Source: Candidatus Binatia bacterium
GTDB lineage: Bacteria; Desulfobacterota; Binatia; UBA12015
NCBI GenBank assembly: GCA_029248525.1
Contig: JAQWJE010000049.1
Coordinates: 549,836-613,835 of the forward strand
Direction: 5' to 3'
Length of the DNA: 64,000 nucleotides
Position numbers and translations under genes: made by a program. Each line of letters opens with the position of its first letter. Position 1 is the first letter of the stretch. Below are positions 9,952 to 39,815 of the stretch, piece by piece. Under the pieces are notes generated by a model. It searched no databases. It was given only the letters and a program-made list of their open reading frames with translations, and was not told the origin of the DNA.

Positions 9952-10764
9952 GTGCGCGGTTCCACCTCACCTGCGATTGTCCTCCGGACAATTCCCTTCG
10001 GCGAATCGGATAAAATCGTGACGCTTTTGTCGCAAGATGCGGGAAAGATCACTGGTATCGCCAAGGGAGCGAAGCGCTCACGGAAACGCTTTGGTGCCGC
10101 ACTCGAGCTCTTTTGCCACATTCGCCTCGATTACCGGGAGCGCCGGGGTTCCGACCTCGCATTTCTCGAACGCGCCGTGATTCTGCGTCCCTGGAGCGGA
10201 TTGGTCTCTTCTCTCGAGCGCTATGTCGCGGCGACTCATATCGTCGAAGTTGCTGATAAAATGTCCGCGGAACGCGAGGTTGGTAGTGACCTCTATGATG
10301 TCGTGGTGGCGGCGCTGGAGCGTCTGGAACGGGCAGAGCCCTGCGCTGCGACGCTGCGGATTTTCGAATTGGCCGTGCTGGCCGTGTCCGGTTACGGCCC
10401 TGATTTCTCGGTTTGCGTTGGCTGTTCCAGCGAATTTCAGGCGTTTGATCGGGGGGCCCGGTTGCACGTCGCTGGTGGGGGCCTGCTGTGCAGCCAGTGT
10501 GCGGGTCCGGAGGCCTCGGGCCTTCTTCTCGGACCCGATAGCGTAGATTGCCTGCACCGCCTGACGGGCCTGGTCGCCGTGGGGTTACCGAACGAAACAC
10601 GGGATACCTTCTGCGGAACCTCGCTTTTTTCGGTGGACGAACATTTGGAGATCGACTCGGCCCGGCACCGTGTCGCCAGTGAGCTCCGGCTGGCGGTCGC
10701 GGCGCTGATCGAACCCCATTTGCGCTCGCCCCTGCGCTCCCTCGATCTAATGAGCGGTATCTGA
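9952..10764 (+). CDS. recO: DNA repair protein RecO
   Basis: GTG start. IVLRTIPFGESDKIVTLLSQDAGKI is the typical RecO N-terminus, and a Cys-rich motif (CVGCSS...CSQC) follows. 270 aa. Confidence 0.8.
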   Translation: MRGSTSPAIVLRTIPFGESDKIVTLLSQDAGKITGIAKGAKRSRKRFGAALELFCHIRLDYRERRGSDLAFLERAVILRPWSGLVSSLERYVAATHIVEVADKMSAEREVGSDLYDVVVAALERLERAEPCAATLRIFELAVLAVSGYGPDFSVCVGCSSEFQAFDRGARLHVAGGGLLCSQCAGPEASGLLLGPDSVDCLHRLTGLVAVGLPNETRDTFCGTSLFSVDEHLEIDSARHRVASELRLAVAALIEPHLRSPLRSLDLMSGI

Positions 10765-11634
10765 CGGGCCCGAGCCAGGACCCAGTTTGTCGGCGTGGGC
10801 GTCCCGGATCGTGGTCAGGGAAAATTGCTCGCAGAGCCGCTTCAATTTGCTCGACATTTTTTGCCGGCCCAGCCGATTGAAGAATCGAATATAGCCCGGA
10901 GTTCCGGGCAGTTTGGGGGATTTCGGGTCGATTTCCCAAGGATGGGTGTAGACAATCGCCGGCCCGGATTCTCGGTTATATCGTTGCAGAAAGTGCGCGG
11001 TTACTGCGAAGGGAAGTGCCCGGAGGGTGAAACCGCCGCCGGCCAGAGGAAGAGTATGCCCTGTCGGGAGTTGAGACAGGGGCAGTGGAAACTCCCAAAG
11101 GCCCGACGCGAGGCGCCCGGGCAGACCTTCGGGGGTGATATACTCGGCTGCTGCTGGTTGGTAACGCAGCGGAAGCCAGCTGGAGTCCCATTGGAAGCCT
11201 GCCTCGGCGACACAATCCAGCGCCCATAGGTCCGCTGCTTCGCGGAGGAAAAACGGTGCCCGAAAACCGGCTACCGGACTGCCGACAAGGTTCTCGAGGG
11301 TTTCCCGCGACCGGCGAAGGTCTTCGCGGACCTCGTCGGGTTTCCGGTCGCCAAGAGGAAGATGTCGCGTGCCGTGGGAGGCAATTTCATGCCCGCGTGC
11401 GTGCGCTTCGCGCAGTAATTCCGGATGTTTTCCGGCCAGAGAGGCGAGGCAGAAGAGTGTGGCCCGCGTGTCGGTCTCCTCGAGAATCTCCAGCATTCTC
11501 CGGAGGTTTTCCTCGACTCGTGGGCCGTGCAGGGCAATTTCCGCGTCGGTCGCGGGGCCGGAGCCACGAGATTCATCATGGTACCAGTCCTCCACATCGA
11601 TGGTGAGAGCGTTACGAACCGGATTCATGGGCAT
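10747..11634 (-). CDS. Polysaccharide deacetylase family protein (NodB homology, DUF3473-type)
   Basis: TIDVEDWYH...FCLASLAGKHPEL...GHEIASHG are NodB-type metal-binding motifs. It resembles the EPS-locus-associated deacetylase subfamily. Confidence 0.7.
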   Translation of the reverse strand: MPMNPVRNALTIDVEDWYHDESRGSGPATDAEIALHGPRVEENLRRMLEILEETDTRATLFCLASLAGKHPELLREAHARGHEIASHGTRHLPLGDRKPDEVREDLRRSRETLENLVGSPVAGFRAPFFLREAADLWALDCVAEAGFQWDSSWLPLRYQPAAAEYITPEGLPGRLASGLWEFPLPLSQLPTGHTLPLAGGGFTLRALPFAVTAHFLQRYNRESGPAIVYTHPWEIDPKSPKLPGTPGYIRFFNRLGRQKMSSKLKRLCEQFSLTTIRDAHADKLGPGSGPSDTAH

Positions 11635-11679
11635 TTACTAGCAGACTTCGGCCGACCCGGGGGAGCGGGTCGGTCCCGG

Positions 11680-12321
11680 CTAAAAAATCCCCGGGATCAG
11701 GCGCCAGGAATGTGCCTGATAGTCTCGATAAGCGCTGCCGAATTTGGTTTCGAGCACGGCTTCCTCATTGGCCATGCGCAAAAGGGTCAACGGCAACCAG
11801 ACACCGAGGGCAACGCCGAGTGCGAGGGGGCTTCGGACGGCCAAAGCCGTTCCGACGGCGATCAAAAGCAGACTTGCGTAGCTGGGATGGCGAATCCACG
11901 CGAACGGACCTTCCTCGACGAGCCGGTGCTCGTTGGCAACCAGAAGCTTGACCGTGAAATGTTCGCCCATAACGCGCGCGACCCACTGCCGAAGAACGAG
12001 GCCCCCGGTGATCAGAAGAGCGCCGCTGATCTCGATCAGACTCGGCCACCGGAGGTGCATGATCGGCTCACGGTTCTGGAAGGCGCCTGTTGCGAGAATG
12101 GCGAGAAACCCGAGCTGCATGCCCCAACCGGTCCAATCCCCACCATTGGCCGACTCACCGGCTTCGCGGCGACCCAGATCGAAGGAGGTGAAGCCGGCGG
12201 CCAACGCAAGGATGATGGCCTCGGGTGAAGCCATTTGTCCCGCCCAACCCACAAGGAGGGCGGCAAGCCCCCCTCGGACCCAGGGGATCATGGTCGCGAG
12301 GTTTGAAGTAGAAGAAGACAC
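11680..12321 (-). CDS. Isoprenylcysteine carboxyl methyltransferase (ICMT)/phospholipid methyltransferase-family membrane methyltransferase
   Basis: Multi-TM protein with the C-terminal ICMT/PEMT motif: EHRLVEEGPFAWIRHPSYASLLL. Confidence 0.6.
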   Translation of the reverse strand: MSSSTSNLATMIPWVRGGLAALLVGWAGQMASPEAIILALAAGFTSFDLGRREAGESANGGDWTGWGMQLGFLAILATGAFQNREPIMHLRWPSLIEISGALLITGGLVLRQWVARVMGEHFTVKLLVANEHRLVEEGPFAWIRHPSYASLLLIAVGTALAVRSPLALGVALGVWLPLTLLRMANEEAVLETKFGSAYRDYQAHSWRLIPGIF

Positions 12322-12361
12322 ATACCCCTCATAGCCGAAAACGGCACCCGCAATCGAGTCC

Positions 12362-13363
12362 TCAGCCGACTCGGAGGCTGGAGGCGCTCGACCCCGGGCG
12401 TCTGCCGAATCGACCGGGGATCGTGAGATGCTGCGCGGAACCGGGACGCCAGGCGCGGCGTTGGCGCGCCACGCGCTCGCGACTGGACCGGTCGAGCCAG
12501 GGCCATAAAAGTCCCGCTCCGAGCAGATTCAGGTAACGCAGCACAAGGTAGAGGAGGTAGCCTCCACCCCCGAGGCGCTTCCAGACAAATAGGTCTTCGG
12601 AGATGGCGGCCTGTTGTTGTCGGGCCGGAGATTGTCGCCGAACGTCGCCACCATGGGTGACGGTGGCCTCCGCACAGAACAGAACGGAGCCCCCGGCCTG
12701 CTGCATGCGATGACAAAAGTCGAGCTCTTCACAGTAGAGGAAATAGTCGTCATCAAAGCCCCCGATCTCTTGCGCCTTCCGGCGTCGAGTCATGAGAAAA
12801 GAGCCTTGTACGGCATCGGTGATATGGGTCACGCTCTGCTGCTTCCGGGCCGTCTCCGGAAATTTTTCGGCCAGCACCTGCGGTGCCAGTCGCCGCAGAA
12901 AGGGGCGCGCCAGGGGTTGGTTGGCCAGCGCAGCCATCGGACCCGGCCAACTGGGTCGGGGGAAGGCACTTCTTTGGAAAGATCCATCACGATCCCGGTG
13001 CGCACAGCCGACGATATCGATCGGCGTTGGCCAATCTCGGGCAGCAGACAGGCAGGTTTCAATCGCGGCATTCTGCAGCCGGGTATCGGGGTTGAGCAGA
13101 AGCACCCAGTCGTGTCCGGCAATATCCAACCCGAAGTTTACTGCAGCAGCAAACCCCGGATTGTCGGGTGCGGTCCGCCAATGAACGTCGGGGTGCGCTT
13201 CCAGCACTCGATTTCGAGCGTCGGGGTTTCCTTCGTTGTCGATGACGATCAATTCCAATTCGAGATTGGGGCTTCTGCGCCGCACGCAGCTCAAGGCACC
13301 GAGAACTTCGTCGGTGTCTCGGTAGTGGACGAGAATGACGCTGACGGTGTTCACGGCCGACAT
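12362..13363 (-). CDS. Glycosyltransferase family 2
   Basis: VSVILVHYRD...LELIVIDNEGNPD... is a GT2 DxD-type fold. The start is set at MSAVNTVSV, which overlaps the upstream GT2 stop. Confidence 0.75.
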   Translation of the reverse strand: MSAVNTVSVILVHYRDTDEVLGALSCVRRRSPNLELELIVIDNEGNPDARNRVLEAHPDVHWRTAPDNPGFAAAVNFGLDIAGHDWVLLLNPDTRLQNAAIETCLSAARDWPTPIDIVGCAHRDRDGSFQRSAFPRPSWPGPMAALANQPLARPFLRRLAPQVLAEKFPETARKQQSVTHITDAVQGSFLMTRRRKAQEIGGFDDDYFLYCEELDFCHRMQQAGGSVLFCAEATVTHGGDVRRQSPARQQQAAISEDLFVWKRLGGGGYLLYLVLRYLNLLGAGLLWPWLDRSSRERVARQRRAWRPGSAQHLTIPGRFGRRPGSSASSLRVG

Positions 13364-14370
13364 ATCGGACACCTTGCCGGTCGTGGTTGGCCGGTGGCGA
13401 ACCTTAGCGAATTCCACCAGACACCGGCTCCCCAGAAGAGATGAATGGTGGGAAAGATAATCAGCAACCGTCCGAGGTGGGCTGTCGAACTCGGAAATGC
13501 AGTGATCATGGCTGCGACGACTACAAGCGAGCAATAGCTCGCAATCAGCAGATAGCAGGCCGAGGCCGCGAGGGGCAGGAATACCCCGAGGCTCGCCGTG
13601 ACCATCAGTGCCGCCAAAAACAGAGGTGGCACAAGTTGGCGCCATTTCATCGAGGCCGGATGTTTCCAGAGGGTATAAGCTCGCCAGCGCCCGTAGCGAA
13701 GATATTGATGGCGCAAGGCCGCCCAGTTGGACCGGGGTGTGTAGGTGGAATGAATGCGCGGCGAGAGCAGAATCCGCCCCCCCGACTCGCTCAGACGAAT
13801 ATTGAGTTCGGAATCTTCGTTGGCGTGGGCTTGCTCGTCAAACCCGTCCAGGCCGCGCAAGGTCCCCGTGCGCCAGGCTCCGAGATAGACCGTATCGACG
13901 AACTTCTCCTGATCGGAATAATGAAAATGGGAATTGCCCAGACCGAAGGGCGTACTCGTCGCCAGCGAAATCGCTTCGCCCATCGGACTTGTCCCCCGGG
14001 GGTTCATCCGACCGCCGACATTTTCGGCACGCCCCTCGCCCAGGAGTTGAATGCAAGTCTCCACATAGTCGGCGGCAATCGTCGTACGCGCATCGACCCG
14101 GATGAAGAATTCCCCACGCGCTTCCTTGAGGGCGAGGTTCAACGCGGGTGCCTGGTAGCGCGCCGGATTCCGGAGCAGGCGCAGGCGAGGTTCGTTGCTC
14201 GAGATGCTCTCCACGATCAAGCAGGTCTTGTCCCGGGAGCCTCCGTCGACCACGAGAATCTCGATTTCGTGAGCCGGCATGGTTTGCGTGCATATGGCCT
14301 CGAGCGTTTGTCGGATGGAGGGTTCCTCGTCGAGAACCGGAATCGCGATCGTGACTCGAGGGGCGCTCAT
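13351..14370 (-). CDS. Glycosyltransferase family 2 with C-terminal TM segments
   Basis: VTIAIPVLDEEPSI...ILVVDGGSRDKT is GT2. The start at MSAPRV overlaps the GT4 stop as ATGA. Confidence 0.75.
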   Translation of the reverse strand: MSAPRVTIAIPVLDEEPSIRQTLEAICTQTMPAHEIEILVVDGGSRDKTCLIVESISSNEPRLRLLRNPARYQAPALNLALKEARGEFFIRVDARTTIAADYVETCIQLLGEGRAENVGGRMNPRGTSPMGEAISLATSTPFGLGNSHFHYSDQEKFVDTVYLGAWRTGTLRGLDGFDEQAHANEDSELNIRLSESGGRILLSPRIHSTYTPRSNWAALRHQYLRYGRWRAYTLWKHPASMKWRQLVPPLFLAALMVTASLGVFLPLAASACYLLIASYCSLVVVAAMITAFPSSTAHLGRLLIIFPTIHLFWGAGVWWNSLRFATGQPRPARCPICRP

Positions 14371-15569
14371 GCGTTGGCTCTTTTTGTTTCGACGACTTCC
14401 GCATAGGTCTGGGCGAGTTGGTCCCCGAGAGCATCCCATCCGTAGTGGCGTCGGACGAGGTCGAGTCCGGCCGCACCCATTTTTTCGCGGGCGTTGCGAT
14501 CTTGCAGGAGTGCCGCGATTGCTCGCACGAGTTCATCCGGGGTGTCCGCGATCTGCAAATCTCTGCCGTCGACGGCCTCGATGCCCTCCGCTCCGACGGT
14601 CGTGGAGACCACGGGGCGCCCCAAAGCCATCGCCTCGAGAATTTTGATGCGGATTCCGGATCCTACGCGGGTGGGTGCCAGAAAGACAGCACCGCGAAGA
14701 ATCTCGGGTCGCACGTCGTTTACGTAGCCGGCAATATCGATGCCCTTGTTTGCGGCATCTTCTCGAGCTTCGGCCGGAATCTCCTTACCGACGATGGTAA
14801 GCCGCGCCTCGGGCTGCACCCTCCGCATCTCCGGCCAAACCTCCCGGCACAGAAAGAGCAGTCCGTCGCGGGTAGGCCCCCAGGAGTAGTCACCTGTGGT
14901 GACGACACGTTGCTCGTCGGGCAAGCAGTCGGGGTCGGGTTGGAAAAACTCGAGATCGACGCCATCCGGCAATACTTTCACGGAGGCTTGAGGTGCAAGT
15001 TGATGGAGCTGCGCGGCATCGACTGCTGTGACCGCGAGGCATTGGTCGAATCGCGCACACGATATTGCCTCATATCGAGCAACAGCGCGGGACTGAGCGC
15101 GGATCAGGGGTCGAAGAAAGGGTCGAGCCGCTGTTTCGGCGTATCTCTCGAGAATCCTGCTTTCGACATTATGTTGGCGAAGGATCGTAGGGAGCTGAGG
15201 TGGGATAGCCTGGACGTAGGCGGCCGTATGCAGATGGTCGAAGTGGACGATATCTATGTCGCGGCTTTCGCAGAGATCGGCGGCCCGTTTTGCAACGGCG
15301 CGCGAATGAAAGCGCGACATAGCCAGGGGGCGTTCGGAGGTGGCAGCATCCAGCAGCGAGAAGATGGATCCGGTCCGGTCCTCGACAGTGACGATATGAT
15401 CGCAGAGGGGTGCCAAGGCGGGAATGCCTTCGCGCGGATCTTCCTGGCAGAGACTCAGCAAGGTCAATTCATGGTGGCGGCCGATCTGGCGCACCAACTG
15501 GTAGAGCGCCATCCGACCACCGTTGTCGGGCGGCCAGGGGAGCTGAGGCGTGATTTGCAGAACATGCAT
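14367..15569 (-). CDS. Glycosyltransferase family 4 (group 1)
   Basis: 400 aa; MHVLQITPQLPWPPDNGGRMALYQ... and a C-terminal GT4 EX7E-type region. Confidence 0.8.
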   Translation of the reverse strand: MHVLQITPQLPWPPDNGGRMALYQLVRQIGRHHELTLLSLCQEDPREGIPALAPLCDHIVTVEDRTGSIFSLLDAATSERPLAMSRFHSRAVAKRAADLCESRDIDIVHFDHLHTAAYVQAIPPQLPTILRQHNVESRILERYAETAARPFLRPLIRAQSRAVARYEAISCARFDQCLAVTAVDAAQLHQLAPQASVKVLPDGVDLEFFQPDPDCLPDEQRVVTTGDYSWGPTRDGLLFLCREVWPEMRRVQPEARLTIVGKEIPAEAREDAANKGIDIAGYVNDVRPEILRGAVFLAPTRVGSGIRIKILEAMALGRPVVSTTVGAEGIEAVDGRDLQIADTPDELVRAIAALLQDRNAREKMGAAGLDLVRRHYGWDALGDQLAQTYAEVVETKRANA

Positions 15570-15578
15570 GATTTGGTC

Positions 15579-15599
15579 GGAGGGACTCGAAGTCCCTCC
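15579..15599. terminator. Perfect 9-bp stem / 3-nt loop hairpin (GGAGGGACT-cga-AGTCCCTCC) between the chemosensory operon and the GT operon
   Basis: Seen directly in the sequence. A T-rich run (TTACTTCTTG) follows on the plus strand only. It may act as an intercistronic terminator/attenuator or an RNA-stability element. Confidence 0.4.
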
Positions 15600-15646
15600 T
15601 TACTTCTTGCATGTCGTGGTGGAAATTTCTGCCAGTGGCGTCGATT

Positions 15647-18430
15647 TCAGAGTTCGGGAAGGACCGCCTCAAGTGCGGCGATGACGGCCTCCTGTGTGAA
15701 GGGTTTGGTGAGATAACCGCTTGCCCCTGATTGTTGCGCCAATTGGCGGTGTTTTTCACTGCCGCGTGAACTGCAGATAATGACGGGAATTTCCTTGAGC
15801 TGAGGATCGTTTCGGACCGCATGAAGGAGCTCGTATCCATGCATTCGCGGCATCTCCAGATCGGTAATCAGAACACGGTATTGCCCACTGCGCAGCCGGT
15901 CGAGAGCCTCGCGGCCGTCGACAGCGGTGTCCCCGGAAACGCCGGCGCCTTCCAGAAAATGATGCGCGAGTTTACGGACACTGATCGAATCTTCCGCCCA
16001 CAGGACGGCTGCTTCGGAGATTTCGGTTCGTTTCTCGAGTGGACGGTCCGCACCCGAGGGGTGTTCCCGCCAAGCGGCATGAAGTCGGCTGGCGTCGAGG
16101 GCAAAGACGACATTTCCATCCCCTCGCAGCGTCGCACTGCTGATGAACGGATGATTATGGAAAAGAGGGCCGAGCGGCCGAATTACCGCTTCCCGCTGCG
16201 ACTCGATCTTCTCCACGAGCAGAGCGACCCGAGTGTCGCCACAGCGCAGGATCACGGCGGTTTGTGGGTCGGCACCGGGCGGGCATCCCAGGAGACGGTG
16301 CAGCGGCAGTGCCGGAAGCCAATCGTTTTCGAAGGCAACGAGATAGCGTTCTTCCTGCTCCTGCAGATCCTCGGGATTGATATTGATCACGGTTTCGACC
16401 GGGCCCTGTGTCAGGGCGATGGTCTCCGTCCCCGCCCGCAACAGGAGGATTTGCTCAATCATCGAGGTCAGGGGGATATGAATTCGAATTTCGGTGCCCT
16501 GCTCGCGCTCGGCTTGAATCGTGACCGAACCTCTAAGTCGGGCAACCTCGGATGCGACGACATCCATGCCAACGCCGCGACCCGATACCGTGTCGGCTGT
16601 TTCCTGCGTCGAGAATCCCGGCTCGAAGATCAGGCCGGAGAGGTAATCAGGGTCGGACGAGCGGCTCTCGTCGAGGATTTTACGCTCTCGGGCGCGGTTC
16701 CGGATCGAATTGAAATCCAGACCGGCGCCGTCATCCTGAACACGAATCTCGACATGGCCGTGGCTTTGTTTCGCATCCAGTGTGATTCGCCCTGCAGCCG
16801 ATTTGCCCTGCTGGCGACGTTCCTCAGGCCGCTGAATTCCGTGGGCGACGGCGTTGCGGACGAGGTGGAGCAAGGGGCCGTATAGAGACTCGATCAGAGA
16901 TCGATCGAGTTGAACGTCCCCCCCATGGCATTCAAAAAGGACTTCTTTTCCGGACTGACGTGCCGCATCTCTTGCGGCATGGGCGAGTCGGCGGTGCAAG
17001 GAGTCCAGCGAAACCAGACGCATATCGCTCACAGTGCGTTGCAGGCTGGAGGTCACTTTGGAGATCTGACGCGACTCGTCGCCAAGAGAGTCAAGAAGCA
17101 GCCCCACCTGTTCGACGACCTCCGAGGTATCCGATGCGAGTTCGACCAGAGTACGGGTCAGGACGTTGAAGTCGTCATATTTATCAAATTCGAGATCCGT
17201 AAAAGCATCGAGGTGTGTAGGCCCGCGGGCCTCGCCTGTGGGTGTTGGTGTTGCCGCGGGTTTTGGCTGATGGAATTCAAAACTTCGAAACCCCTCAATC
17301 GTTTCCCCCAGTCGCATCCGGTCGACGCTGAGCTTCTCCCGCATTTCCTGAATGGCCGACATTCCATCGTCGAGTTGTGTCCGGCTGACCACCAATTCGC
17401 TGATGCGGCTCATTAGAAGATCCAGTCGGCTGCTGTGCACCCGAATCACGCCACCATCGGTATCTTTGGCCGGGGCGATGGGGGGCGGTCGTTGCGGCTG
17501 GGAAGCCGACTCCCCGGCCGTTCGAAGCGTGTTCTCCGCAGGGGGGGGCTGCGCGGTCATCTTCGCCAGGGCCGTCTCGACAAGATCTTTCGGATTCCGC
17601 AGGATCAGACTTTGGTGCTGTTGTTGTCTGGATTCGGCAATCAACCCGGCGGCCGAGTCGAGGATCTGCAGAAGACAATCGTGCAGATCCGTGGCGGGGA
17701 CGGATTTGCGCTTTTCCAGAACTTCTTCGAGCAGCGTCTCGCCGGCCTCCATCTGGGCGACAATCCCGGCTAGCTCCACGGCCGCCGCCGCACCTTTCAG
17801 CGTATGGAATTGGCGAAAAAGAGTCCGCAAAGGAGCGGGGTCACCGGGCTCCGCTTCCAGAAGAACCATTGCATTTTCCGCAGCCTCGAGCGCGGCATCT
17901 GCGTCGAGGCGGAAGGCGTCGAGCATCTCCCTGTCAAAGGCTTCCCTTTCGGGGTCGGGAGGCGCGGCAGGTGCGGTCTCGGTTGGCCCGTCGGATTCGC
18001 CTTGCCGAGCTGCCGTCGCCGCTATTTCGAGGGCTTCCTCGGGTGAGGGGAGACCGGCTTCAGCGCATAATTTGCACAGGCTGGGACTGATTTCAGAGAA
18101 AAAGGCATGGCTCAGAGGTAGTTCCGGACCCTGTTCCTCCGGGCCTTCGAATGCGGTCTGCAAATTGCGGCCGAGTTCACTCAAGTCCTCCATGCCGACA
18201 GTTGCCGCACTTCCCTTCACCGTATGGAATTGACTCCCAAGGGCAGCACAGGCTTCTTCCTGCTGGCCCGGATCGGCAAGGGCCGCGAGATATTGCTCAA
18301 GGCTCTGAAGGATTTCGGGGAGCTCTTCGCGAAATGTTTCTCGCAGGTCCTCAGCGAGAGAGCTCTCAAAGCTGTCCAGTTCCGGCGATATGGGCAGGGA
18401 TTTACTATGCGTTTCGTTTTCGGAATCCAT
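15647..18430 (-). CDS. CheA-CheY hybrid histidine kinase (two Hpt domains, HATPase, CheW-like domain, C-terminal receiver)
   Basis: Two Hpt motifs (FHTVKGSAATV and FHTLKGAAAAV), HATPase_c (VQDDGAGLD...GRGVGMDV), a CheW-like domain and a REC domain (VLITDLEMPRMHGYEL...YLTKPF). Confidence 0.9.
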   Translation of the reverse strand: MDSENETHSKSLPISPELDSFESSLAEDLRETFREELPEILQSLEQYLAALADPGQQEEACAALGSQFHTVKGSAATVGMEDLSELGRNLQTAFEGPEEQGPELPLSHAFFSEISPSLCKLCAEAGLPSPEEALEIAATAARQGESDGPTETAPAAPPDPEREAFDREMLDAFRLDADAALEAAENAMVLLEAEPGDPAPLRTLFRQFHTLKGAAAAVELAGIVAQMEAGETLLEEVLEKRKSVPATDLHDCLLQILDSAAGLIAESRQQQHQSLILRNPKDLVETALAKMTAQPPPAENTLRTAGESASQPQRPPPIAPAKDTDGGVIRVHSSRLDLLMSRISELVVSRTQLDDGMSAIQEMREKLSVDRMRLGETIEGFRSFEFHQPKPAATPTPTGEARGPTHLDAFTDLEFDKYDDFNVLTRTLVELASDTSEVVEQVGLLLDSLGDESRQISKVTSSLQRTVSDMRLVSLDSLHRRLAHAARDAARQSGKEVLFECHGGDVQLDRSLIESLYGPLLHLVRNAVAHGIQRPEERRQQGKSAAGRITLDAKQSHGHVEIRVQDDGAGLDFNSIRNRARERKILDESRSSDPDYLSGLIFEPGFSTQETADTVSGRGVGMDVVASEVARLRGSVTIQAEREQGTEIRIHIPLTSMIEQILLLRAGTETIALTQGPVETVININPEDLQEQEERYLVAFENDWLPALPLHRLLGCPPGADPQTAVILRCGDTRVALLVEKIESQREAVIRPLGPLFHNHPFISSATLRGDGNVVFALDASRLHAAWREHPSGADRPLEKRTEISEAAVLWAEDSISVRKLAHHFLEGAGVSGDTAVDGREALDRLRSGQYRVLITDLEMPRMHGYELLHAVRNDPQLKEIPVIICSSRGSEKHRQLAQQSGASGYLTKPFTQEAVIAALEAVLPEL

Positions 18431-18452
18431 GCAAAGCCCCTTTCGAGTCCGT

Positions 18453-19877
18453 TCAGACAGAAGGTGCGACCGAGTTTGGTTGCTGGATCGTCAGGCATAA
18501 TTCGAGAAGCGCCTCGCTCCGATGACGAGTCGTTTCCTCGGCGACTTCCAGCTTGCGGGCGACGTTTTCGATTTGTTCGAGGGCAGATTCAATCTGGTCG
18601 GCCGCGGCGCATTGTGACGTCGCCGTATGGGTGACCGCATCGACAGCGGCATGCGCGCTTTCGGCTTCCTGTCGCAGCTTCTGGATCGAGCGCTCGGCCG
18701 CCGCCGCTGCAGCCGAGTGCATTTCAATCCGCTCGCCTTGCCGGTCCATTCCACCGACGGCTTCGCCAATATCATTCTGAATTCCGCGAATCAGCCGATC
18801 GACTTCCTTGGCTGCCTGAGAGGCTTTCTCCGCAAGCTTGCGCACCTCCTCGGCGACGACGGTAAAACCGTGGCCCTGCTCTCCGGCCCTCGAGGCTTCG
18901 ATGGCTGCGTTCAGCGCGAGCATATCGGTCTGTGCCGACATTTTGGAGATGGTGCCGGTGATCGCGGCTATCTGCATGGAACGCTCACCCAGCCGTTTGA
19001 TCTTGACGGTCGCAGCCCGGGTTTCCCGCTGGAGTCCCTCCATGCCCGCATTGAGGTCGGAGATAGCGGACTGGCTCTGCTTGCCGGCCTGCTCGGCGAG
19101 GCTGCTGGAGTCGATGGCCTCCTGGCATAAACTCGTGAGTCGCTGGTTCTGGACCTTGAGTTGATCGGCATCCTCCGAGGTGGCGGCACAGACCTCCCTT
19201 TGGGCCAGAGCATCGCCGTGCGCAGCATGGGCCGCCAGCCGAACCTGCTCAGCCGAATGTCCGATCCCCTGTGATATATTCGCGAGGTCCTCATCGCGAG
19301 CACCGAGCTCCTCGAGGGTCTGGTTGAGCCGTAGCCCCAGCTCTGCAAAATCTCCCTTGAGATCGCATCGAGAGTCCCGTTCACCGGCCTGATGCCGAGA
19401 CAGGGTGTTTGTCATGGATTTGATGGCTCTCTCGACAACGATTCGATGCTCGACGAGGTGCTGGTGCTGGAGATCCCAGCTGTCCAGAATACGATTGACC
19501 GCCCGACAGGATTCAGCTGCAGGCCCGGAGCCCTCGGCGGGTAGTCGGGTTTCATAATGTCCGCGTTGCATCTTGCGCAGAGCGGCCGGTAGATCCCGCA
19601 GGCCTCCCGCGAAGGACTGCCAGAGGTGTCGGCCGAGAACCCAGCCGAAAACGCTAGCCAGGATTGCCGAGATCCCCGTCGCCAAACTCAGGGAGAGGAC
19701 GCCCGGCTCCATCAGAAACCCTTCGAGCACGAGGAAGGCCAATATCCCCTGCATGCCTGCAATGATCATGGCCAGGAGGGCGATTTTCCCCGCGCCTTCT
19801 CGACTCCAATCGTGATCCTTGCGTGAGGCAGACGCGACTCCTGGAGCCAGGGGGGTTAATTTCTCTGCAGTGGCCAT
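18453..19877 (-). CDS. Methyl-accepting chemotaxis protein: two closely spaced TM helices, no periplasmic domain, HAMP, MCP signalling domain
   Basis: MCP highly conserved domain ([38 protein letters not shown]). The N-terminus has two TM segments separated by only a few residues. Confidence 0.9.
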
Positions 19878-20359
19878 GGCTCACCTCTCTCGTCTGTCGT
19901 GATTGCCGCAAAGTCGGCCCGAATAACCTCCGCCACCTCGCGGAGAAAAAGCTGTCCGTCCAAAATAATGGTCTGGCTGTCGCCTCGGCGCACCACACCC
20001 CGAATCAGGTGCTGTGGCATCCCGAGTTCGTGAGGGGGTAGGGAGTGAATCTCCCAGGGCGCGAAATGTTGTACGGCAAGAACTTCGTCGACACCGGCTG
20101 CGACTCGCAGGTCGCCTTCGGCGAGAACGATCAGGCTCCGGGGACATTCGTCGCCCGAAGGTTGGCGGTGGAGGAAAGTCGCCAGTGAGATCAGTGGCAG
20201 GATTTCTCCACGCAGATTGAAGGCACCCAGAAGTCCGGCGGGCGCACGTGGAATTTCCGTATACCGCCGTCGCTCGACGACTTCGCCTGCGACCTCGGTA
20301 GAGAACGCGAATTGGGTCTGGTTGCTGCGAAAGAGGCAATGGTCGCCGTGCGCATTCAT
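19856..20359 (-). CDS. cheW: Chemotaxis coupling protein CheW
   Basis: 167-aa CheW-like domain ([19 protein letters not shown]...[20 protein letters not shown]). Confidence 0.85.
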
Positions 20360-21456
20360 AGCTCGATGACCTCGGGCAGACCCGCTTCCGTCGGAGGAGA
20401 GGCTGTTCCTGTCAGGGCGGGAATGGTGTTCAGCGACTCATGGCAGGGCAGATCGGCATCGGCGGGATCCTCGTTCTCGTTGGATCCCAGACGACAGAGG
20501 CAACTGCGTTCCGGAAGTCTCTGCAGGGCCCGGGTCAGCGTTTCATCCGGAGGTCCGTCGAGAAGAAGGACTTCCGGTTGCAGAATCGCGGCGAGGTGGG
20601 GCAGGAGTTCGAAATGGCGGTAGAGGAAAATCCATCTGGATTTTTCGGCCTCGGAGATCTCGCTCTCGAGGGCCTCTGTCACGGATGCTGCCGAGGTCGA
20701 GACCAGAATGCGAGAGGGAACCACTGGAACTCGAAGATATTGTCCCTGCGTGCGGGCGAGGAGCAGGCTCGCCTGACAAAGCGCGGTATGCGCCGCGACG
20801 AGTTCGGCCCCGGGATCGATAATTTGCCCTTGGGGGTTCAGGTGGATGTTCCGAGGGATCCTCTCACGCCGCCGGCGAAGTGTCAGGACTTCAGAGGTCG
20901 CCTTGTCGAGCAGTTCGAGAATGGACTGGTTATCGGTTGTGACGCTTCGTTGGCTGGCCAGCGAGGCGGTCTCCTCCAGCGATTGGAGGAGGTGGCGAAA
21001 CCCGACTTCGACGGACTGCAATCCGCCGCGTTGTGGCGCCGATCTTCCCGGCGCAGGGCGATCGACCCGAGGAGGTGCTGTGTGGCGATTTTCTGCCAAT
21101 GCATGGGAGACAACACTCAGAACAACCTTGGGCTTGAAAGGCTTCGTGATGTAGCTGACGACATTCTGCGCATCCTCGTACGCCTGTCGAATCGAGGTTC
21201 CCTTGGCGGATACCAGCACAACAGGTGTGGATTGCGTGAGCGGAATTTCTTCCAATGCCGCGCAGACGTCGGGCCCCCTCATATCGGGCAGGACGTAGTC
21301 GAGAAGGATGAGCTGCGGATCGAAATTGGCCGCAGCCTCGAGCGCATCTTTCCCGGTAGCCGCGAGTTGAAGATCGTAGCCCTCGGGTTTGAGGATCATC
21401 TCCAACGCGCGTCGAATTGTCAGTGAATCGTCGACGATCAGAATACGAGCGCTCAT
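20356..21456 (-). CDS. Response regulator: N-terminal CheY-like receiver fused to a ~240-aa C-terminal domain of unknown function
   Basis: The REC domain is complete (ILIVDDS...LILLDYVLPDM...YITKPF). The C-terminal half has no recognisable motif. Its ATG overlaps the upstream stop and its stop overlaps the cheW start. Confidence 0.8.
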   Translation of the reverse strand: MSARILIVDDSLTIRRALEMILKPEGYDLQLAATGKDALEAAANFDPQLILLDYVLPDMRGPDVCAALEEIPLTQSTPVVLVSAKGTSIRQAYEDAQNVVSYITKPFKPKVVLSVVSHALAENRHTAPPRVDRPAPGRSAPQRGGLQSVEVGFRHLLQSLEETASLASQRSVTTDNQSILELLDKATSEVLTLRRRRERIPRNIHLNPQGQIIDPGAELVAAHTALCQASLLLARTQGQYLRVPVVPSRILVSTSAASVTEALESEISEAEKSRWIFLYRHFELLPHLAAILQPEVLLLDGPPDETLTRALQRLPERSCLCRLGSNENEDPADADLPCHESLNTIPALTGTASPPTEAGLPEVIEL

Positions 21457-21968
21457 GAATGGCGCTCTCGTACACGCTGCGCAAGGAGGTCGGGAGAAAA
21501 GATCATCAATGGTGTTTCCTCACGAAATTGCAGATGGATTCCGAACGAACCATCGTCCAATCGGGCGAGCGGGACGATCGGGTACGCGCCCAGGTCCTCA
21601 ATGCCGACAAATGTCTCGGCTCCGACAGCGACGGTGCCGATCGTGGTCTGGACCAGCGCGGTCCAACCGTGGGTGCGTGGCCCGGGAGCCGGACGAGCAC
21701 CGCTGATCTCCGTCAGTTCCAGTCGGGGAAAATCTGCAGGGGGCGGCGGTCCATCGGATCGACTCTCGGTATCCGTATGATGAAAAATCCGCGTAACGGT
21801 CCCCATCGCGAGCCCGACCGGGCAGCCTTCGCTTTCCAGGATTACCAACAGATTGTCGGTGGCCAGTTGTTCATCTGCCTCATGCACGCTCACGATTCCC
21901 CCGTGGAAGTTGCCCTGACTGCTTCTTTCCCACTCGCCCTGCGATGCTGGATCGGAAGTCCCCGGCAA
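21453..21968 (-). CDS. Hypothetical protein, first gene of the chemosensory operon (possible degenerate CheW-like domain)
   Basis: 171-aa ORF with a TTG start at 21968 (start uncertain). There is weak resemblance to CheW segments (LLVILESEGCPVGLAMGTVTRI). Coding is supported mainly by the ATGA coupling to the next gene. Confidence 0.35.
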   Translation of the reverse strand: MPGTSDPASQGEWERSSQGNFHGGIVSVHEADEQLATDNLLVILESEGCPVGLAMGTVTRIFHHTDTESRSDGPPPPADFPRLELTEISGARPAPGPRTHGWTALVQTTIGTVAVGAETFVGIEDLGAYPIVPLARLDDGSFGIHLQFREETPLMIFSPDLLAQRVRERHS

Positions 21969-22071
21969 GGACTTGAGCGCTTTCTCGTCTCCGCCGGGAT
22001 GGTCAAGAAGCAGGTCGGGGCGTCCGATGGGAATTTTGTCGGCGTCGGGCCGATGCGGAACGGTTGGAGAA

Positions 22072-23856
22072 TTTATGTACGGAGACCAGGTTGGAGAGGT
22101 TGTTGAGGGCGGCGGGGGCTCGGAGTCGACCAGATTTTTGGTGATCTCGCTCCTGCAGACTCTGGTGCAACTGCCATCGGGGTTTAACGATTCATCCCGC
22201 GATTCGGCTTTCGATTCGGCTCTGTCGGTCCTGCAGGATCGGTTGGGTCTTTCCGGCGTCTATCTTTTGGGGCCGCGCTGCCGCTCGGGACTGGCCGCAG
22301 GAGGGATTCCCGCAGAAGTCGAGGATATTCTTTTTGAGGGGGAAGCTACGGGGGAGTCGCTGTTGGGGCGGGTCTCCAGAGAGCAGCGTATTTTCCTGCT
22401 CGGTCGACGCAGCACCGAGCCCTGCATGAATCGAATCCGCCAGCTGGATCTGGATTGGCAGGCCGTCGCGCTGGTTCCTCTTCGACCAGCATCCGGCGCG
22501 TCGGTAATTTTGGTGCTTGCCGCATCTGACGGCACGCTCCTCTCTCCTGAAATTCTTGCGACCTTGCACCCGGTCTTTCGCTTTATCGCGGGGTCTCTGA
22601 ATCTTTCCGATTCAGGCGAGCCATCGCCCGAGGGAGCGATGCCAGGGGTCGAGGACCTCGAGGTCGAACTCGAGGCGCTTCGATCACGCAACACCGAGGT
22701 GGAGGATCTCCTCCGCGTGGCGGGCGAGGCAACCGCTGCCGGCGAAGCAGGGATGCGGCTCGAGATCGAGGATGCGCGCGTCCAGATCGCGGAGCTGGAG
22801 ACCTCCCTTGCCAGCGCGACAGCGAAGCCCGCGGAGGTTCCCTGCGAAGATTGTATGGTTCTGCGCCGCAAGGCCGCGGCGAACGAGTTACGCATGCAGA
22901 CTCTGGAGCAGGATCTGGCCGAGCTTCGCCTGCTCGCCGATGTCGCGGAAGTCGCTTCTGTTGCGATCGATGCGCCCGCGAACAAGGTGGCGCTCTCTCC
23001 GGTGATTGCTCTCGAGGACGAGCCGGTAGAAGCGGTGGCCCTTGGCGCCATGGCCGAAGCTGCGGTCGCCGAGTTGGCGAGTGTCGCTGAACCCGAGAGG
23101 ATGGATCCGCCAGACGAACTGCCGGGGCCGGTTCTGGTTCCCGAGGCGGCGAAGGTCGCTGGCGCTCCGGAGCCCTGGGTTCTCTGTTGTGCCGAGGGTT
23201 CGCGTCCGATGTTTGAAGAACTCGCCAGATTTGCCGGTGATCAAGCGATGCCGATCTTTTCATCGGAGGATCTCGAAATATCGCCGGGCCGACGCCTCCT
23301 GCTGGTGAACCTGCTCGTGGATGATCCTGCCGAGATAGTTGCGGCGATGGAGGAATCTCACCTTGATCTGCGGCTTCTCGCCTATGCCGCCCGAGGCAAG
23401 AGTGGCGCTGCATTGGGAGAAATTGGATGGTTGGCCTCATCGCTTCCCGCGGAGGAGGCGCTGGCCGAGATCCGAAACCATCATGGGCTGCCGGAACGAA
23501 CACTGCTGGTCAGCGCGCGACTACGCGAAATGGCGCCCCTGCGAGAAGCTCTGACCAATGAAGGGAGTTCGGTGGCCATGGCTTGTGATGCGCGGCAGGC
23601 TCTCGACCTCCTCGAGATTGTCCAGCAACCCGATGCGGTGATCCTCGATTTGGCAGTGGAGGGAGCGGTGACGCTCGCTCTCGCCGCACGCCTCTATCGG
23701 GAAAACCCTTCGACAGGGTTGCAGATTTTCCTCCTCGCGCCGGAGAAGTCGAGGCTGCCGGAGTTTCGCGCCGATACTGCATGGGCCGAGGTTTTGCGCC
23801 CTTTCGGGATCCCCGACCTGCAGCGTTTGATCGCGCCCTGGGCCCGATTGCCCTGA
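22072..23856 (+). CDS. Hypothetical regulatory protein: GAF-like N-terminal domain, Ala/Glu-rich coiled coil, two receiver-like (pseudo-receiver) domains
   Basis: The ORF track gives 21973 (TTG). An ATG at 22072 with GGAGA 5-6 nt upstream is preferred. A GAF-like block (VYLLGP...IFLLGRRS...VALVPL) is followed by heptad-rich AELETSLASATAK...LRMQTLEQDLAELRLLADV. REC-like segments lacking the N-terminal acidic pair follow (LLLVNLLVDDPAEI; AVILDLAVEGAV...FLLAPEKS). Confidence 0.5.
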   Translation, partial: FMYGDQVGEVVEGGGGSESTRFLVISLLQTLVQLPSGFNDSSRDSAFDSALSVLQDRLGLSGVYLLGPRCRSGLAAGGIPAEVEDILFEGEATGESLLGRVSREQRIFLLGRRSTEPCMNRIRQLDLDWQAVALVPLRPASGASVILVLAASDGTLLSPEILATLHPVFRFIAGSLNLSDSGEPSPEGAMPGVEDLEVELEALRSRNTEVEDLLRVAGEATAAGEAGMRLEIEDARVQIAELETSLASATAKPAEVPCEDCMVLRRKAAANELRMQTLEQDLAELRLLADVAEVASVAIDAPANKVALSPVIALEDEPVEAVALGAMAEAAVAELASVAEPERMDPPDELPGPVLVPEAAKVAGAPEPWVLCCAEGSRPMFEELARFAGDQAMPIFSSEDLEISPGRRLLLVNLLVDDPAEIVAAMEESHLDLRLLAYAARGKSGAALGEIGWLASSLPAEEALAEIRNHHGLPERTLLVSARLREMAPLREALTNEGSSVAMACDARQALDLLEIVQQPDAVILDLAVEGAVTLALAARLYRENPSTGLQIFLLAPEKSRLPEFRADTAWAEVLRPFGIPDLQRLIAPWARLP

Positions 23857-23967: not shown

Positions 23968-25311
23968 ATGGCCCAGTCCAAGAAAACGTCCAAAGGCACA
24001 CCATCTGAAGATCGGATGGAGCGAATCGTCAATCTCTGCAAGCGCCGGGGCCTGGTATTCCCCTCCAGCGATATTTACGGGGGGTTGTCGAGTTGCTGGG
24101 ACTACGGTCCGATCGGCGTCGAGCTGAAGCGCAACGTCAAAGAGGCGTGGTGGCGTGATATGGTGTGGGGCCGTGGCGATATTCTGGGGCTCGATTGTTC
24201 GATTCTGATGCACCCCAAGGTGTGGGAGGCCTCGGGCCATATCGACGGATTTACGGACCCTTTGGTGGATTGTCGCAAATGCAAGAAGCGCTACCGCGAA
24301 GACCATCTGGAGGACACGGCGAAATGTCCTGACCCGAAATGTGGCGGGGAACTGACGCCGGCACGCAATTTCAATCTCATGTTCAAGACGTTCATGGGCC
24401 CCGTCGAAGACACCGCCAGTACGGTATTTATGCGACCGGAGACGGCGCAGGGGATGTTCGTGAACTTCTCCAACGTCCTGGACACCCAGCGCGTAAAACT
24501 ACCATTCGGTGTAGCGCAGGTCGGCAAGTCCTTCCGCAACGAAATCACTCCGGGCAACTTCCTTTTCCGCACCCGTGAATTCGAGCAGATGGAGATGGAG
24601 TTCTTCATTGCCCCCGAGGAAGAGGCGCAGTGGTACGAGTATTGGAAGAATGAGAGGTACGATTGGTACCTGCGGAACGGGATCAAGAAAGACAAGCTTC
24701 GCCTTCGGGAACATGAAGCCGACGAGCTGGCGCACTACGCACGTGGGTGCGCGGACGTCGAGTATGAATTCCCTTTCGGTTGGTCCGAACTCGAAGGGAT
24801 TGCCAGCCGAACCGATTATGATCTGGGCAAGCACGCTGAACATAGCGGCAAGGACCTGAGCTATTTCGACGAAGAAAAAAAGGAACGCTACCGTCCTTTC
24901 GTGATTGAGCCCGCCGCCGGAGCGGATCGCGCGACTCTGGCCTTCCTGGTCGATGCCTATGATGAGGACGAGGTCGACGGCGATATTCGCGTCGTTTTAC
25001 GCCTGCATCCCCGTTTGGCGCCGGTGAAAGTGGCGATTCTCCCTCTGTTGCGCAAGCTCGGCCAGCCGGAGAAAGCACGCGAGATCCATGCCCGCCTGCG
25101 GCCGAATATGGTCACGCAATATGATCAATCCGGATCCATCGGGCGCCGCTACCGCCGTCAGGACGAGATTGGCACACCCTTTTGCGTCACCGTCGACCAC
25201 CAATCGATGGAGGACGGTACGGTCACTCTGCGCGATCGAGACGCCCTGACGCAAGACCGGGTTCACGAAGACGATTTGCAGGGCGAGCTGATGAAGCGGC
25301 TCTTCGGCTAG
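23968..25311 (+). CDS. glyQS: Glycine--tRNA ligase (alpha2-type, GlyQS)
   Basis: 447 aa; class II aaRS motifs and a GlyRS anticodon-binding domain (RGLVFPSSDIYGGL...FRNEITPGNFLFRTREFEQMEMEFF). Confidence 0.9.
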   Translation: MAQSKKTSKGTPSEDRMERIVNLCKRRGLVFPSSDIYGGLSSCWDYGPIGVELKRNVKEAWWRDMVWGRGDILGLDCSILMHPKVWEASGHIDGFTDPLVDCRKCKKRYREDHLEDTAKCPDPKCGGELTPARNFNLMFKTFMGPVEDTASTVFMRPETAQGMFVNFSNVLDTQRVKLPFGVAQVGKSFRNEITPGNFLFRTREFEQMEMEFFIAPEEEAQWYEYWKNERYDWYLRNGIKKDKLRLREHEADELAHYARGCADVEYEFPFGWSELEGIASRTDYDLGKHAEHSGKDLSYFDEEKKERYRPFVIEPAAGADRATLAFLVDAYDEDEVDGDIRVVLRLHPRLAPVKVAILPLLRKLGQPEKAREIHARLRPNMVTQYDQSGSIGRRYRRQDEIGTPFCVTVDHQSMEDGTVTLRDRDALTQDRVHEDDLQGELMKRLFG

Positions 25312-35399: not shown

Positions 35400-35537
35400 T
35401 CGAGGTTGCTCCATTCAAGAAACCATCAGCGGCTACCGAAGGATCAGACAGAAATTGGGTCGAGTTGAGGGATGCATGAGTGCTGCTCAATGCAGGGTTG
35501 GCACGAACAAGCGGACGATTCGGGGAGGGATTTCAAA

Positions 35538-36653
35538 ATGCAGATGCAGGATTTTTTCGAAGCGATGGCCGATCAGGGAGCTTCCGATTTGCACCTCACG
35601 GAGGGGGCCGCGCCCACCATCCGCATTCACGGAGAGATGACACCCCTGGAACATCCGCGACTCAATTCCACCGAGACCCGGCAGCTCTGTTACAGCGTCC
35701 TCTCGGAGGAGCAGAAAAAGCAATTCGAGGAAGAATCCGAGTTGGATTTCTCGTTCGGCGTGCAGGGAATCTCGCGTTTTCGCGGCAACCTCTTTGTGCA
35801 GAAGGGCGCGGTCGGTGCTGTCTTCCGCGCCATCCCCCACGAGGTGCCGCCGATCGCAGATCTAGGTCTACCTCGAACTGTCGAAGATTTGATCAAGCTC
35901 CCCCGGGGCCTGGTTCTGGTGACCGGCCCTACAGGGAGCGGCAAGTCCACGACGATGGCCTCGATGGTTGATCAAATCAACGAAACCCGCGCCGAACATA
36001 TCATGACCGTCGAAGATCCAATCGAGTTCATTCATCCTCATAAGCGCTGCGTGGTTAACCAGCGAGAAGTTTTTGCAGATACGCAAAGTTTTGGTCAGGC
36101 CTTGAAGCATATTCTGCGTCAGGATCCGGATGTGGTTCTGGTTGGTGAGTTGCGGGATCTGGAAACAATCGAAGCCGCTTTGACGATTGCGGAGACCGGA
36201 CATCTGGTCTTTGCGACCCTCCATACGAATTCGGCAGTGCAGACAATCAACCGTGTGATCGATGTCTTTCCGGCGCACCAGCAATCGCAGGTCCGAGCCC
36301 AGCTTTCCCTGGTTCTCGAAGCGGTCATTTCACAGACATTATTGCCCCGTGCGGACAAGGATGGCCGCGTCATGGCCTGCGAATTGATGATCCCGAATGC
36401 AGCAATACGGAATTTGATCCGCGAAGAGAAAGTCCACCAACTCTACTCGCAGATGCAGGTGGGCCAGGACAAAAACGGTATGGTGACGTTGTCCCAGTCC
36501 CTCCTGGACCTGCACAGTCGCGGAATGATCTCACGTGAAGCTGCTTTGCTCGCAGCGACCGAATCCGAGGAACTGGAACGCATGATGGGCGCGTCGCCCA
36601 CCGACCGTCAGAAGGGTGGCGGGGTTTCCCCGCGCATCACTTTGGCACGCTGA
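35538..36653 (+). CDS. pilT: Twitching-motility retraction ATPase PilT
   Basis: ATG 35538 with GGGGAGGGA upstream gives MQMQDFFEAMADQGASDLHLTEGAAPTIRIHGEM. Walker A GPTGSGKSTT, ILRQDPDVVLVGELRD and the AIRNLIRE motif typical of PilT/PilU are present. Confidence 0.85.
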   Translation: MQMQDFFEAMADQGASDLHLTEGAAPTIRIHGEMTPLEHPRLNSTETRQLCYSVLSEEQKKQFEEESELDFSFGVQGISRFRGNLFVQKGAVGAVFRAIPHEVPPIADLGLPRTVEDLIKLPRGLVLVTGPTGSGKSTTMASMVDQINETRAEHIMTVEDPIEFIHPHKRCVVNQREVFADTQSFGQALKHILRQDPDVVLVGELRDLETIEAALTIAETGHLVFATLHTNSAVQTINRVIDVFPAHQQSQVRAQLSLVLEAVISQTLLPRADKDGRVMACELMIPNAAIRNLIREEKVHQLYSQMQVGQDKNGMVTLSQSLLDLHSRGMISREAALLAATESEELERMMGASPTDRQKGGGVSPRITLAR

Positions 36654-36661
36654 GGTTTCTG

Positions 36662-39600: not shown

Positions 39601-39815
39601 GAATGGCGCGGCTCTCCCGCCGCGATTGTTGCCGCCCCAGCATGCGCACGTTTTGTCAGCGGTGTTCGGATTTTGCCACCGCGTGTACGAAAACGTCGAA
39701 ATCCTGCCGCTCGGGCAGCGTCAGAAACATGACGTTTCGGACAAATCCCGTCCATGGAAGTAAATAAGTCAATAATAACAAGGACTTACCTGAATTACTC
39801 CACGGGCGCTCCACG

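Follow-up and report, generated by a model that had tools for sequence, protein, structure and literature searches.

Membrane methyltransferases of the ICMT/PEMT fold modify carboxylates, phosphates, thiols, phenols and amines. They abound in bacteria (34,858 representative clusters match the profile), and very few have a known substrate. Solved members include Ma-ICMT from Methanosarcina acetivorans (4A2N) and Tribolium ICMT/Ste14 (5V7P/5VG9). LmtA of Leptospira, a lipid A 1-phosphate methyltransferase of the same superfamily, methylates an acidic group on a membrane-anchored glycolipid. Other pathways combine a membrane GT2 glycosyltransferase with a cytoplasmic CE4 deacetylase: in NodC/NodB/NodS the freed amine is then methylated, and in ArnC/ArnD the CE4 enzyme ArnD acts on a polyprenyl-linked sugar at the cytoplasmic face (undecaprenyl-phosphate Ara4FN deformylation). 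Here we analyse a 64-kb stretch of a Candidatus Binatia genome (contig JAQWJE010000049.1; hereafter the window), in which a gene encoding an ICMT/PEMT-fold methyltransferase precedes a CE4 deacetylase gene and follows three glycosyltransferase genes and a chemosensory cluster. The methyltransferase and deacetylase genes form the durable unit of this gene run, from which both the glycosyltransferases and the Che genes are separable. We tentatively propose that the two enzymes tailor one lipid-anchored amino-sugar intermediate.

The window protein has the fold and the C-terminal cofactor motifs of the solved ICMTs, and both carboxylate-binding arginines of eukaryotic ICMT have counterparts in it (R111, R182). 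In contrast, identity to these enzymes is only 17-22%, residues 1-95 are clade-specific, and the operon genes offer no prenylation context. LmtA is the nearest precedent for the proposed type of reaction, but the window has no lipid A genes near the methyltransferase, and identity with LmtA itself was rejected (TIGR04571, 20 bits against a cut-off of 325). The logic of the Nod and Arn pathways recurs here, whereas matches of the window proteins to NodB, NodC and ArnC-type transferase models of NCBIfam are weak and far below cut-offs. Unlike the window enzyme, NodS is a soluble class I methyltransferase without the ICMT fold, and the window operon lacks an acyltransferase or GT-C gene. XrtA/PEP-CTERM loci supply the best models for the deacetylase and the GT4 protein (TIGR03006 and TIGR03087), and the DUF3473 architecture and catalytic residues are common to both. 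Assignment to such a locus was nevertheless rejected, as the deacetylase (201.7 bits, cut-off 276.2) and the GT4 protein (Table 1) score below the cut-offs, and Pfam scans covering the operon and most of the window's other large ORFs show no exosortase. The chemosensory cluster has the same order of response regulator, CheW, methyl-accepting chemotaxis protein (MCP) and multi-Hpt CheA-CheW-REC kinase as Pil-Chp (Pseudomonas), Dif (Myxococcus) and Hmp/Hps (Nostoc). It also resembles them in lacking CheR and CheB, in its adjoining glycan genes and in the type IV pilus genes 13 kb away. To our knowledge, none of these three operons contains an ICMT-fold methyltransferase or a CE4 deacetylase. Control of exopolysaccharide by DifE is documented (PMC4671073).

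The methyltransferase gene is real. Its open reading frame (ORF) of 213 codons occupies exactly 11680-12321 of the minus strand, with a GTG start and GAGGGG 5' of it. A chance ORF is excluded because the closest homologues reach E=1e-132 and the ratio of nonsynonymous to synonymous change (dN/dS) against three orthologues is 0.07-0.10 (synonymous sites saturated), a sign of purifying selection. The protein exceeds the gathering thresholds of both Pfam ICMT (PF04140; E=8.8e-15, 55.4 bits, cut-off 24) and Pfam PEMT (PF04191; E=2.2e-12, 47.8 bits, cut-off 25). Since the two models overlap on residues 98-196, Pfam is unable to decide between them, ICMT scoring slightly better. A sequence-only reading of the window had described here a protein with several membrane passes and the ICMT/PEMT motif, between a DUF3473 deacetylase and two GT2 genes. 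The ORF, the core RLVEEGPFAWIRHPSYASLLL, the Pfam scores and the structural model all agree with this description, and the flanking ORFs, all on the minus strand, are as it claimed (10747-11634, 12362-13645 and 13351-14439). The Pfam comparison that it proposed confirmed the superfamily and did not separate PEMT from ICMT. Among NCBIfam models the protein fits the isoprenylcysteine O-methyltransferase equivalog NF040696 best, and membership in this curated set of prenylcysteine methyltransferases was rejected (76 bits, cut-off 160). NCBI already names the protein an isoprenylcysteine carboxylmethyltransferase family protein of Candidatus Binatia, and taken by itself it is a fairly ordinary membrane enzyme, another member of a known family.

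An AlphaFold model calculated from 21 sequences (predicted local distance difference test score, pLDDT, 86.5) has about six membrane helices. Its top Foldseek matches are the ICMT structures 5v7p, 5vg9 and 4a2n together with 8xku_G (probability 1.0, template modelling score 0.56-0.66), followed by sterol reductases, so that the unrelated fold against which the sequence-only reading had guarded was not found. Among solved structures, a profile of the clade retrieves 4a2n (Ma-ICMT, E=7.7e-18), 5v7p (Tribolium ICMT, E=1.5e-13) and PDB 8xku chain G (E=8e-13). The last is AtTam46, which belongs to the Ycf2-FtsHi motor complex of Arabidopsis chloroplasts and has an ICMT-like domain at its C-terminus. 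The partner residues of the RLVEEGPFAWIRHPSYASLLL core lie further 3' in the gene (E186, E187, Y198 and Y201). R144, H145, P146, Y148, E186, E187 and Y201 are invariant in the clade and align with their counterparts in 4a2n and 5v7p; the residues for binding S-adenosylmethionine (SAM) are near-invariant across distant homologues, where R144, P146 and E186 alone are strictly so. Judged from the alignments, the SAM-binding motifs are intact. The N-terminal half (residues 1-95, including DLGRREA, WGMQLGFL and FQNR) is conserved within the clade, and is specific to it because only about 17 clusters score at least 180 bits over the whole length. Considering the fold and where SAM is available, both termini, the cofactor-binding loop and the C-terminal helices are predicted to face the cytoplasm.

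In Tribolium ICMT the substrate carboxylate is held by Arg173 and Arg246 (PMC8358657). In a HMMER alignment, counted through, these correspond to R111 and R182 of the window protein, both invariant in its clade. Their conservation favours a carboxylate acceptor and a methyl ester product, a preference that the alignment alone does not turn into a fixed substrate. The uronic-acid methyl-esterification suggested by the sequence-only reading is thus possible.

Full-length relatives are few. A word-indexed search returned 12 methyltransferase homologues, and of the 34,858 superfamily matches found by a profile search of 1.84 billion representatives only about 17 clusters reach at least 180 bits over the whole length, so the full-length architecture of the clade is rare. 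The clade occurs in Candidatus Binatia and in metagenome-assembled genomes labelled "Deltaproteobacteria" or "Thermodesulfobacteriota". We mapped the window proteins onto 45 loci and ordered the methyltransferases in a neighbour-joining tree, for which no bootstrap support was calculated. In the window and roughly 20 loci, the deacetylase gene lies directly 3' of the methyltransferase gene, at a gap of 0-60 nt, wherever the Che-linked clade is represented with enough downstream sequence. The exception (L009) is rearranged and sits beside an IS200-like transposase gene. This adjacency holds across 40-100% identity, and also in L020, where glyS, ICMT, deacetylase and recO follow in order and the Che genes are absent. 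The window and its closest relatives (L001-3, L008/L016 and L004; 58-80% identity) carry, in order, Che genes, GT4-GT2-GT2, ICMT, deacetylase and recO.

The partner is a CE4 deacetylase whose best NCBIfam match is the XrtA-type model TIGR03006. It retains every CE4 catalytic residue common to genuine XrtA deacetylases (D13, E15, H87, H91, R125, P127 and H231). No signal peptide was found in its translation, and it is thus expected to act in the cytoplasm.

Our best guess is that the two enzymes form a tailoring module with a glycan-modifying role, a proposal to which we give somewhat less than even confidence. The ICMT is the first half and the cytoplasmic CE4/DUF3473 deacetylase the second half of a two-gene module, which in Candidatus Binatia closes a Pil-Chp-like chemosensory operon on its 3' side, beside recO. 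In the sublineage of the window, a GT4, an ExoA-like GT2 and a second GT2 lie between CheA and the module. One amino-sugar glycoconjugate, anchored in the membrane by a polyprenyl or another lipid, would be the substrate of both enzymes at the cytoplasmic leaflet. The deacetylase would remove its N-acetyl group, and the methyltransferase would use SAM to methylate an acidic group of the same intermediate. The acceptor is most likely a carboxylate, which would give a methyl ester; alternatively, the amine freed by the deacetylase could be N-methylated, as in the NodB-then-NodS sequence. In the lineage of the window, the module would be co-expressed with the three glycosyltransferases and the Pil-Chp-like signalling system.

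A parallel comes from an unrelated locus of 72% GC (L045, 10001-19176). There, a DUF3473 deacetylase (43% identity to that of the window) accompanies an ICMT/PEMT-like gene (189 aa, 34% identical over 80 residues), together with a flippase-like gene (LPG_synthase_TM), two GT4s (one of them stp1-like, 270 bits), a convergent GT2, Wzy and Wzx. As this is a true Wzx/Wzy locus with the same enzyme families, a glycan-modifying role stays the best guess. In the Pfam table of a further locus (P0407), a DUF3473 deacetylase adjoins PMT_2 (GT-C), PIG-L and DedA. Each of these handles sugars linked to polyprenyl, and we count this for the glycan reading. The near-constant deacetylase partner and the L045 parallel therefore uphold the glycan role that the sequence-only reading had proposed, whereas its argument from neighbouring glycosyltransferases fails in the relatives. 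With a cytoplasmic CE4 deacetylase as its dependable partner, this ICMT subfamily offers a concrete two-enzyme system for reconstitution, possibly revealing a new lipid-linked sugar modification (methyl ester or N-methyl). The constant position of the module behind a Pil-Chp-like operon in Binatia, an uncultured, widespread phylum, further hints that chemosensory signalling may control the chemistry of surface glycans.

Several observations weigh against a module that modifies a glycan, or against reading its function from its neighbours. About a dozen loci carry, in order, Che genes, ICMT, deacetylase and recO, and no glycosyltransferases (L005, L006, L010, L012, L014/29/33, L015, L022, L025, L028, L030, L031, L043 and L044; 40-53% identity). 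In one locus (L042) the Che genes and the deacetylase are present and the ICMT is absent, and in L038/L039 the GT4-GT2-GT2 cassette (60% identity) occupies the same chromosomal spot upstream of recO without ICMT, deacetylase or Che genes. The cassette and the ICMT-deacetylase module thus each occur without the other. In the ten loci of a sister clade (L011, L013, L017-L019, L021, L023, L024, L026 and L027; 45-50% identity) the methyltransferase gene is solitary and has no sugar genes around it. In the operon, Pfam and NCBIfam scans found no flippase (Wzx), polymerase (Wzy), priming transferase or exporter, and the two canonical XrtA loci that we inspected have the deacetylase and lack an ICMT gene. 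The position of R111 is a Phe in Ma-ICMT and varies among distant homologues, many of which have the arginine while lacking an assigned function. Because members of the fold methylate such varied groups, family membership does not fix the substrate. Finally, the literature yielded nothing linking ICMT with exopolysaccharide or polysaccharide deacetylase, Binatota with chemotaxis, or MddA or LmtA with these families.

These arrangements also limit the claim of the sequence-only reading that the gene is embedded in a glycosyltransferase operon. The claim is right for the window and for relatives of at least 58% identity (L001-L004, L008 and L016) and wrong for the more distant orthologues. In about a dozen of these the ICMT gene lies directly between CheA and the deacetylase, so the possibility that relatives carry the gene outside such an operon is partly borne out. 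As a conserved functional unit with the methyltransferase, the flanking glycosyltransferases fail, being adjacent only in the clade of at least 58% identity. Nor is the proposed exopolysaccharide type of operon demonstrated: its glycan genes are GT4, GT2, GT2, ICMT and deacetylase only, and a Wzx/Wzy-type assignment was rejected. The same reading left out the GT4 gene and the complete upstream chemosensory cluster, and it did not recognise the deacetylase and usually the Che operon as the conserved partners of the methyltransferase. For annotation this calls for caution: the flanking glycosyltransferases belong to an arrangement of recent date and give no evidence of what the gene does. In the tree, the arrangement with glycosyltransferases is nested within the one without them. 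This nesting suggests insertion of the glycosyltransferases into a Che-ICMT-deacetylase operon that already existed, a direction to which a tree lacking bootstrap values lends weak support. We consider this Che-ICMT-deacetylase operon of Binatia the part most worth attention.

The most credible alternative, although an unlikely one, is that the substrate of the methyltransferase has nothing to do with glycans, that the enzyme acts on a membrane lipid or a small hydrophobic molecule (a thiol as for MddA, a phenolic lipid as for SrsB/BpsB, or a phospholipid head group as for PEMT), and that its gene owes its position to a recombination-prone interval. From glyS (23968-25311 in the window) to recO, the spot is variable in Binatia genomes and holds differing combinations of the Che, glycosyltransferase and ICMT-deacetylase modules. 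Its contents range over Che with GT, ICMT and deacetylase; Che with ICMT and deacetylase; Che with deacetylase; ICMT with deacetylase; and GT only, as expected if position says little about function. A toxin-antitoxin pair beside the cassette in L038, the solitary sister clade and the score above the PEMT threshold point the same way. So does the presence of ICMT-family genes in alkylresorcinol clusters (PMC8779670). A chance position is, however, hard to reconcile with an ICMT-deacetylase adjacency that is retained throughout the range of 40-100% identity, even in L020, where the Che genes have been lost, or with the distant ICMT-like gene that again lies beside a DUF3473 deacetylase in L045. 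Moreover, Pfam detected no type III polyketide synthase or lipid-synthesis gene in the operon.

The pair could instead modify a peptidoglycan precursor (lipid II) or another lipid-linked intermediate of the envelope rather than an exopolysaccharide, the methyltransferase esterifying a peptide or sugar carboxylate and the deacetylase de-N-acetylating the sugar. We regard this as improbable. Most loci have no dedicated glycosyltransferases, so that genes elsewhere must supply the substrate, which would suit such a precursor, as would the predicted cytoplasmic side of both enzymes and the conserved carboxylate-binding arginines. The CE4 family also includes peptidoglycan deacetylases, to which NCBIfam gives weak matches; the window deacetylase is nevertheless closest to the XrtA-type polysaccharide subfamily. 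No mur, mra or lipopolysaccharide gene is linked to the module in any locus, and no precedent was found in the literature.

A role within the chemosensory pathway, either as an adaptation pair that replaces CheR and CheB or as the enzymatic output of the pathway, seems very improbable. Neither CheR nor CheB is encoded in the cluster at 15647-21968 or in any related locus examined. The operon of about a dozen genomes comprises genes for a CheW-like protein, response regulator, CheW, MCP, CheA, ICMT and deacetylase, in which the junction of CheA and ICMT ranges from a 41-nt overlap to a gap of about 160 nt, and carboxyl methylation by ICMT is formally the reaction of CheR. Against this, Pil-Chp and cyanobacterial-type chemosensory systems often lack CheR and CheB anyway. 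The pair persists without Che genes in L020, while L042 has the Che genes and deacetylase without ICMT; the active site of ICMT is set in the membrane leaflet and serves lipid-anchored substrates, and CE4 enzymes are not known as methylesterases. Synteny also extends to recO, grpE and dnaK, which implies that much of the gene order is inherited and not selected. It is a still bolder speculation, which we think highly unlikely, that ICMT and the CE4 hydrolase are the covalent-modification pair of a pathway without CheR and CheB, either as an unconventional means of adaptation that targets a signalling component anchored in the membrane, or as the direct output of the pathway, altering a surface glycolipid when signals arrive. 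If true, the series CheW, response regulator, CheW, MCP, CheA, ICMT and deacetylase would be a new kind of chemosensory system in Binatia.

Scant credence is due to a true carboxyl methyltransferase of protein prenylcysteine (or of a lipid-modified C-terminal cysteine), for which the best NCBIfam match and the two conserved carboxylate-binding arginines speak, given that the match is at 76 bits against a cut-off of 160, that Pfam finds no prenyltransferase or CaaX protease among the operon genes, that the MCP and neighbouring proteins have no C-terminal CaaX box, and that the N-terminal half is specific to the clade of the window.

The gene run extends on the minus strand from 21968 to 10747, in the order CheW-like, response regulator, CheW, MCP, ChpA-like CheA, GT4, ExoA-like GT2, GT2, ICMT and deacetylase (Table 1). 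All its genes overlap or are closely spaced, and the run ends against recO, where the transcription unit stops and the variable interval has one of its edges. The gene for GT2a overlaps the end of the GT4 gene at its start, and the 5' part of the GT2b gene overlaps the end of GT2a, so that all three glycosyltransferase genes overlap in series; GT2b stops 40 nt before the methyltransferase gene (spacer 12322-12361), and a spacer of 45 nt (11635-11679) follows that gene. A scan for minus-strand promoter-like sites between CheA and the deacetylase found none, nor any convincing terminator-like site, the counts differing little from those expected after shuffling. All genes of the run are thus likely to be transcribed together. 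Pfam scans, which covered the operon and most of the remaining large ORFs in the window, also detected no exosortase, Wza, Wzc, FemAB, chain-length determinant or exporter.

Table 1. Features of the gene run in the 64-kb window (window coordinates)
Feature	Position	Strand	Remarks
recO	9952..10764	+	convergent with the deacetylase gene, 18-nt overlap with its 3' end
CE4 deacetylase (Polysacc_deac_1 + DUF3473)	10747..11634	-	downstream of the methyltransferase gene as its near-constant partner
ICMT/PEMT-fold (COG2020, Ste14-like) integral-membrane SAM-dependent methyltransferase	11680..12321	-	213 aa, about six transmembrane helices
Cofactor-binding core RLVEEGPFAWIRHPSYASLLL, residues 133-153, pattern G-P-x(4)-R-H-P-x-Y	11863..11925	-	
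GT2 glycosyltransferase (GT2b)	12362..13363	-	start taken at Met95 of ORF 12362-13645, uncertain
ExoA-like GT2 (GT2a), C-terminal membrane helices	13351..14373	-	start Met23 of ORF 13351-14439
GT4 glycosyltransferase	14367..15569	-	best NCBIfam match TIGR03087 (stp1), 227.6 bits, below the cut-off of 316.65
CheA-GT4 intergenic region, conserved	15570..15646	-	
ChpA-like hybrid kinase: two Hpt, dimerisation domain, HATPase, CheW, REC	15647..18430	-	Pfam
Methyl-accepting chemotaxis protein (MCP)	18453..19877	-	Pfam
CheW	19856..20359	-	Pfam
Response regulator: N-terminal REC and about 250 residues without Pfam match	20356..21456	-	Pfam
Small first gene of the run	21453..21968	-	no Pfam match; L043/L044 orthologues weakly CheW-like

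The spacer between CheA and GT4 is 84% conserved, far above the synonymous sites of the flanking genes (pS ~0.68). It contains a perfect hairpin (15579-15599, GGAGGGACT-TCG-AGTCCCTCC) that pairs the ribosome-binding site of GT4 just upstream of its ATG at 15569 and is not followed by a T-run. Its pairing is retained with compensatory changes in L001 and L008/L016, and it may act in translational control or as an internal promoter. A further motif of this spacer, TGGCAGAAATTTCC, bears a loose likeness to a sigma-54 -24/-12 site, with a poor match to the consensus at the -12 element. The 45-nt spacer between the methyltransferase and the deacetylase holds a GC-rich hairpin (CCGACCCG-CTCCCC-CGGGTCGG), also without a following T-run. 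Rfam gave no match anywhere in the window at gathering thresholds, and thus no riboswitch.

Elsewhere, the neighbourhoods vary. In the longer loci of the sister clade (L011, L013, L019, L021, L024 and L026), the methyltransferase has another conserved neighbourhood, between genes for a Metallophos/PhoD-like phosphoesterase and for a protein of the alanine-racemase-N-like type. The cassette of L038/L039 is accompanied by a DUF1302 gene and a toxin-antitoxin pair (PhdYeFM/PIN in L038). Homologues of both GT2 genes (50% and 39% identity) occur in L040 (4022-11994), elsewhere in the genome from the recO spot, where they adjoin DUF1302, a TP_0789/LolA-like protein, a FeeM-like N-acyl amino acid synthase and an MMPL/RND transporter; this setting hints that the glycosyltransferase cassette may build an exported glycolipid and not a classical exopolysaccharide. 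Upstream in L045 lie genes for an adenylate-forming ligase and a halogenase-like flavoprotein. Searches of plasmids by tblastn gave only distant matches with generic annotation for the methyltransferase (27-40% identity) and only canonical XrtA or archaeal loci for the deacetylase, both inspected loci being without ICMT.

Divergent from the Che operon, a 627-aa ORF (21973-23856, plus strand) has no Pfam match; a gene of similar length takes its position in L001, L042 and L044, with faint matches to REC or GAF only. The type IV pilus genes of the window occupy 33645-51093, about 13 kb from the Che cluster. They encode PilB-like and PilT-like ATPases, PilC, a sigma-54 activator with PAS domains, the prepilin peptidase PilD and a TPR protein, as well as GspH-like pseudopilins, pseudopilins with an N-methyl motif and a PilY1-like protein of 1107 aa.

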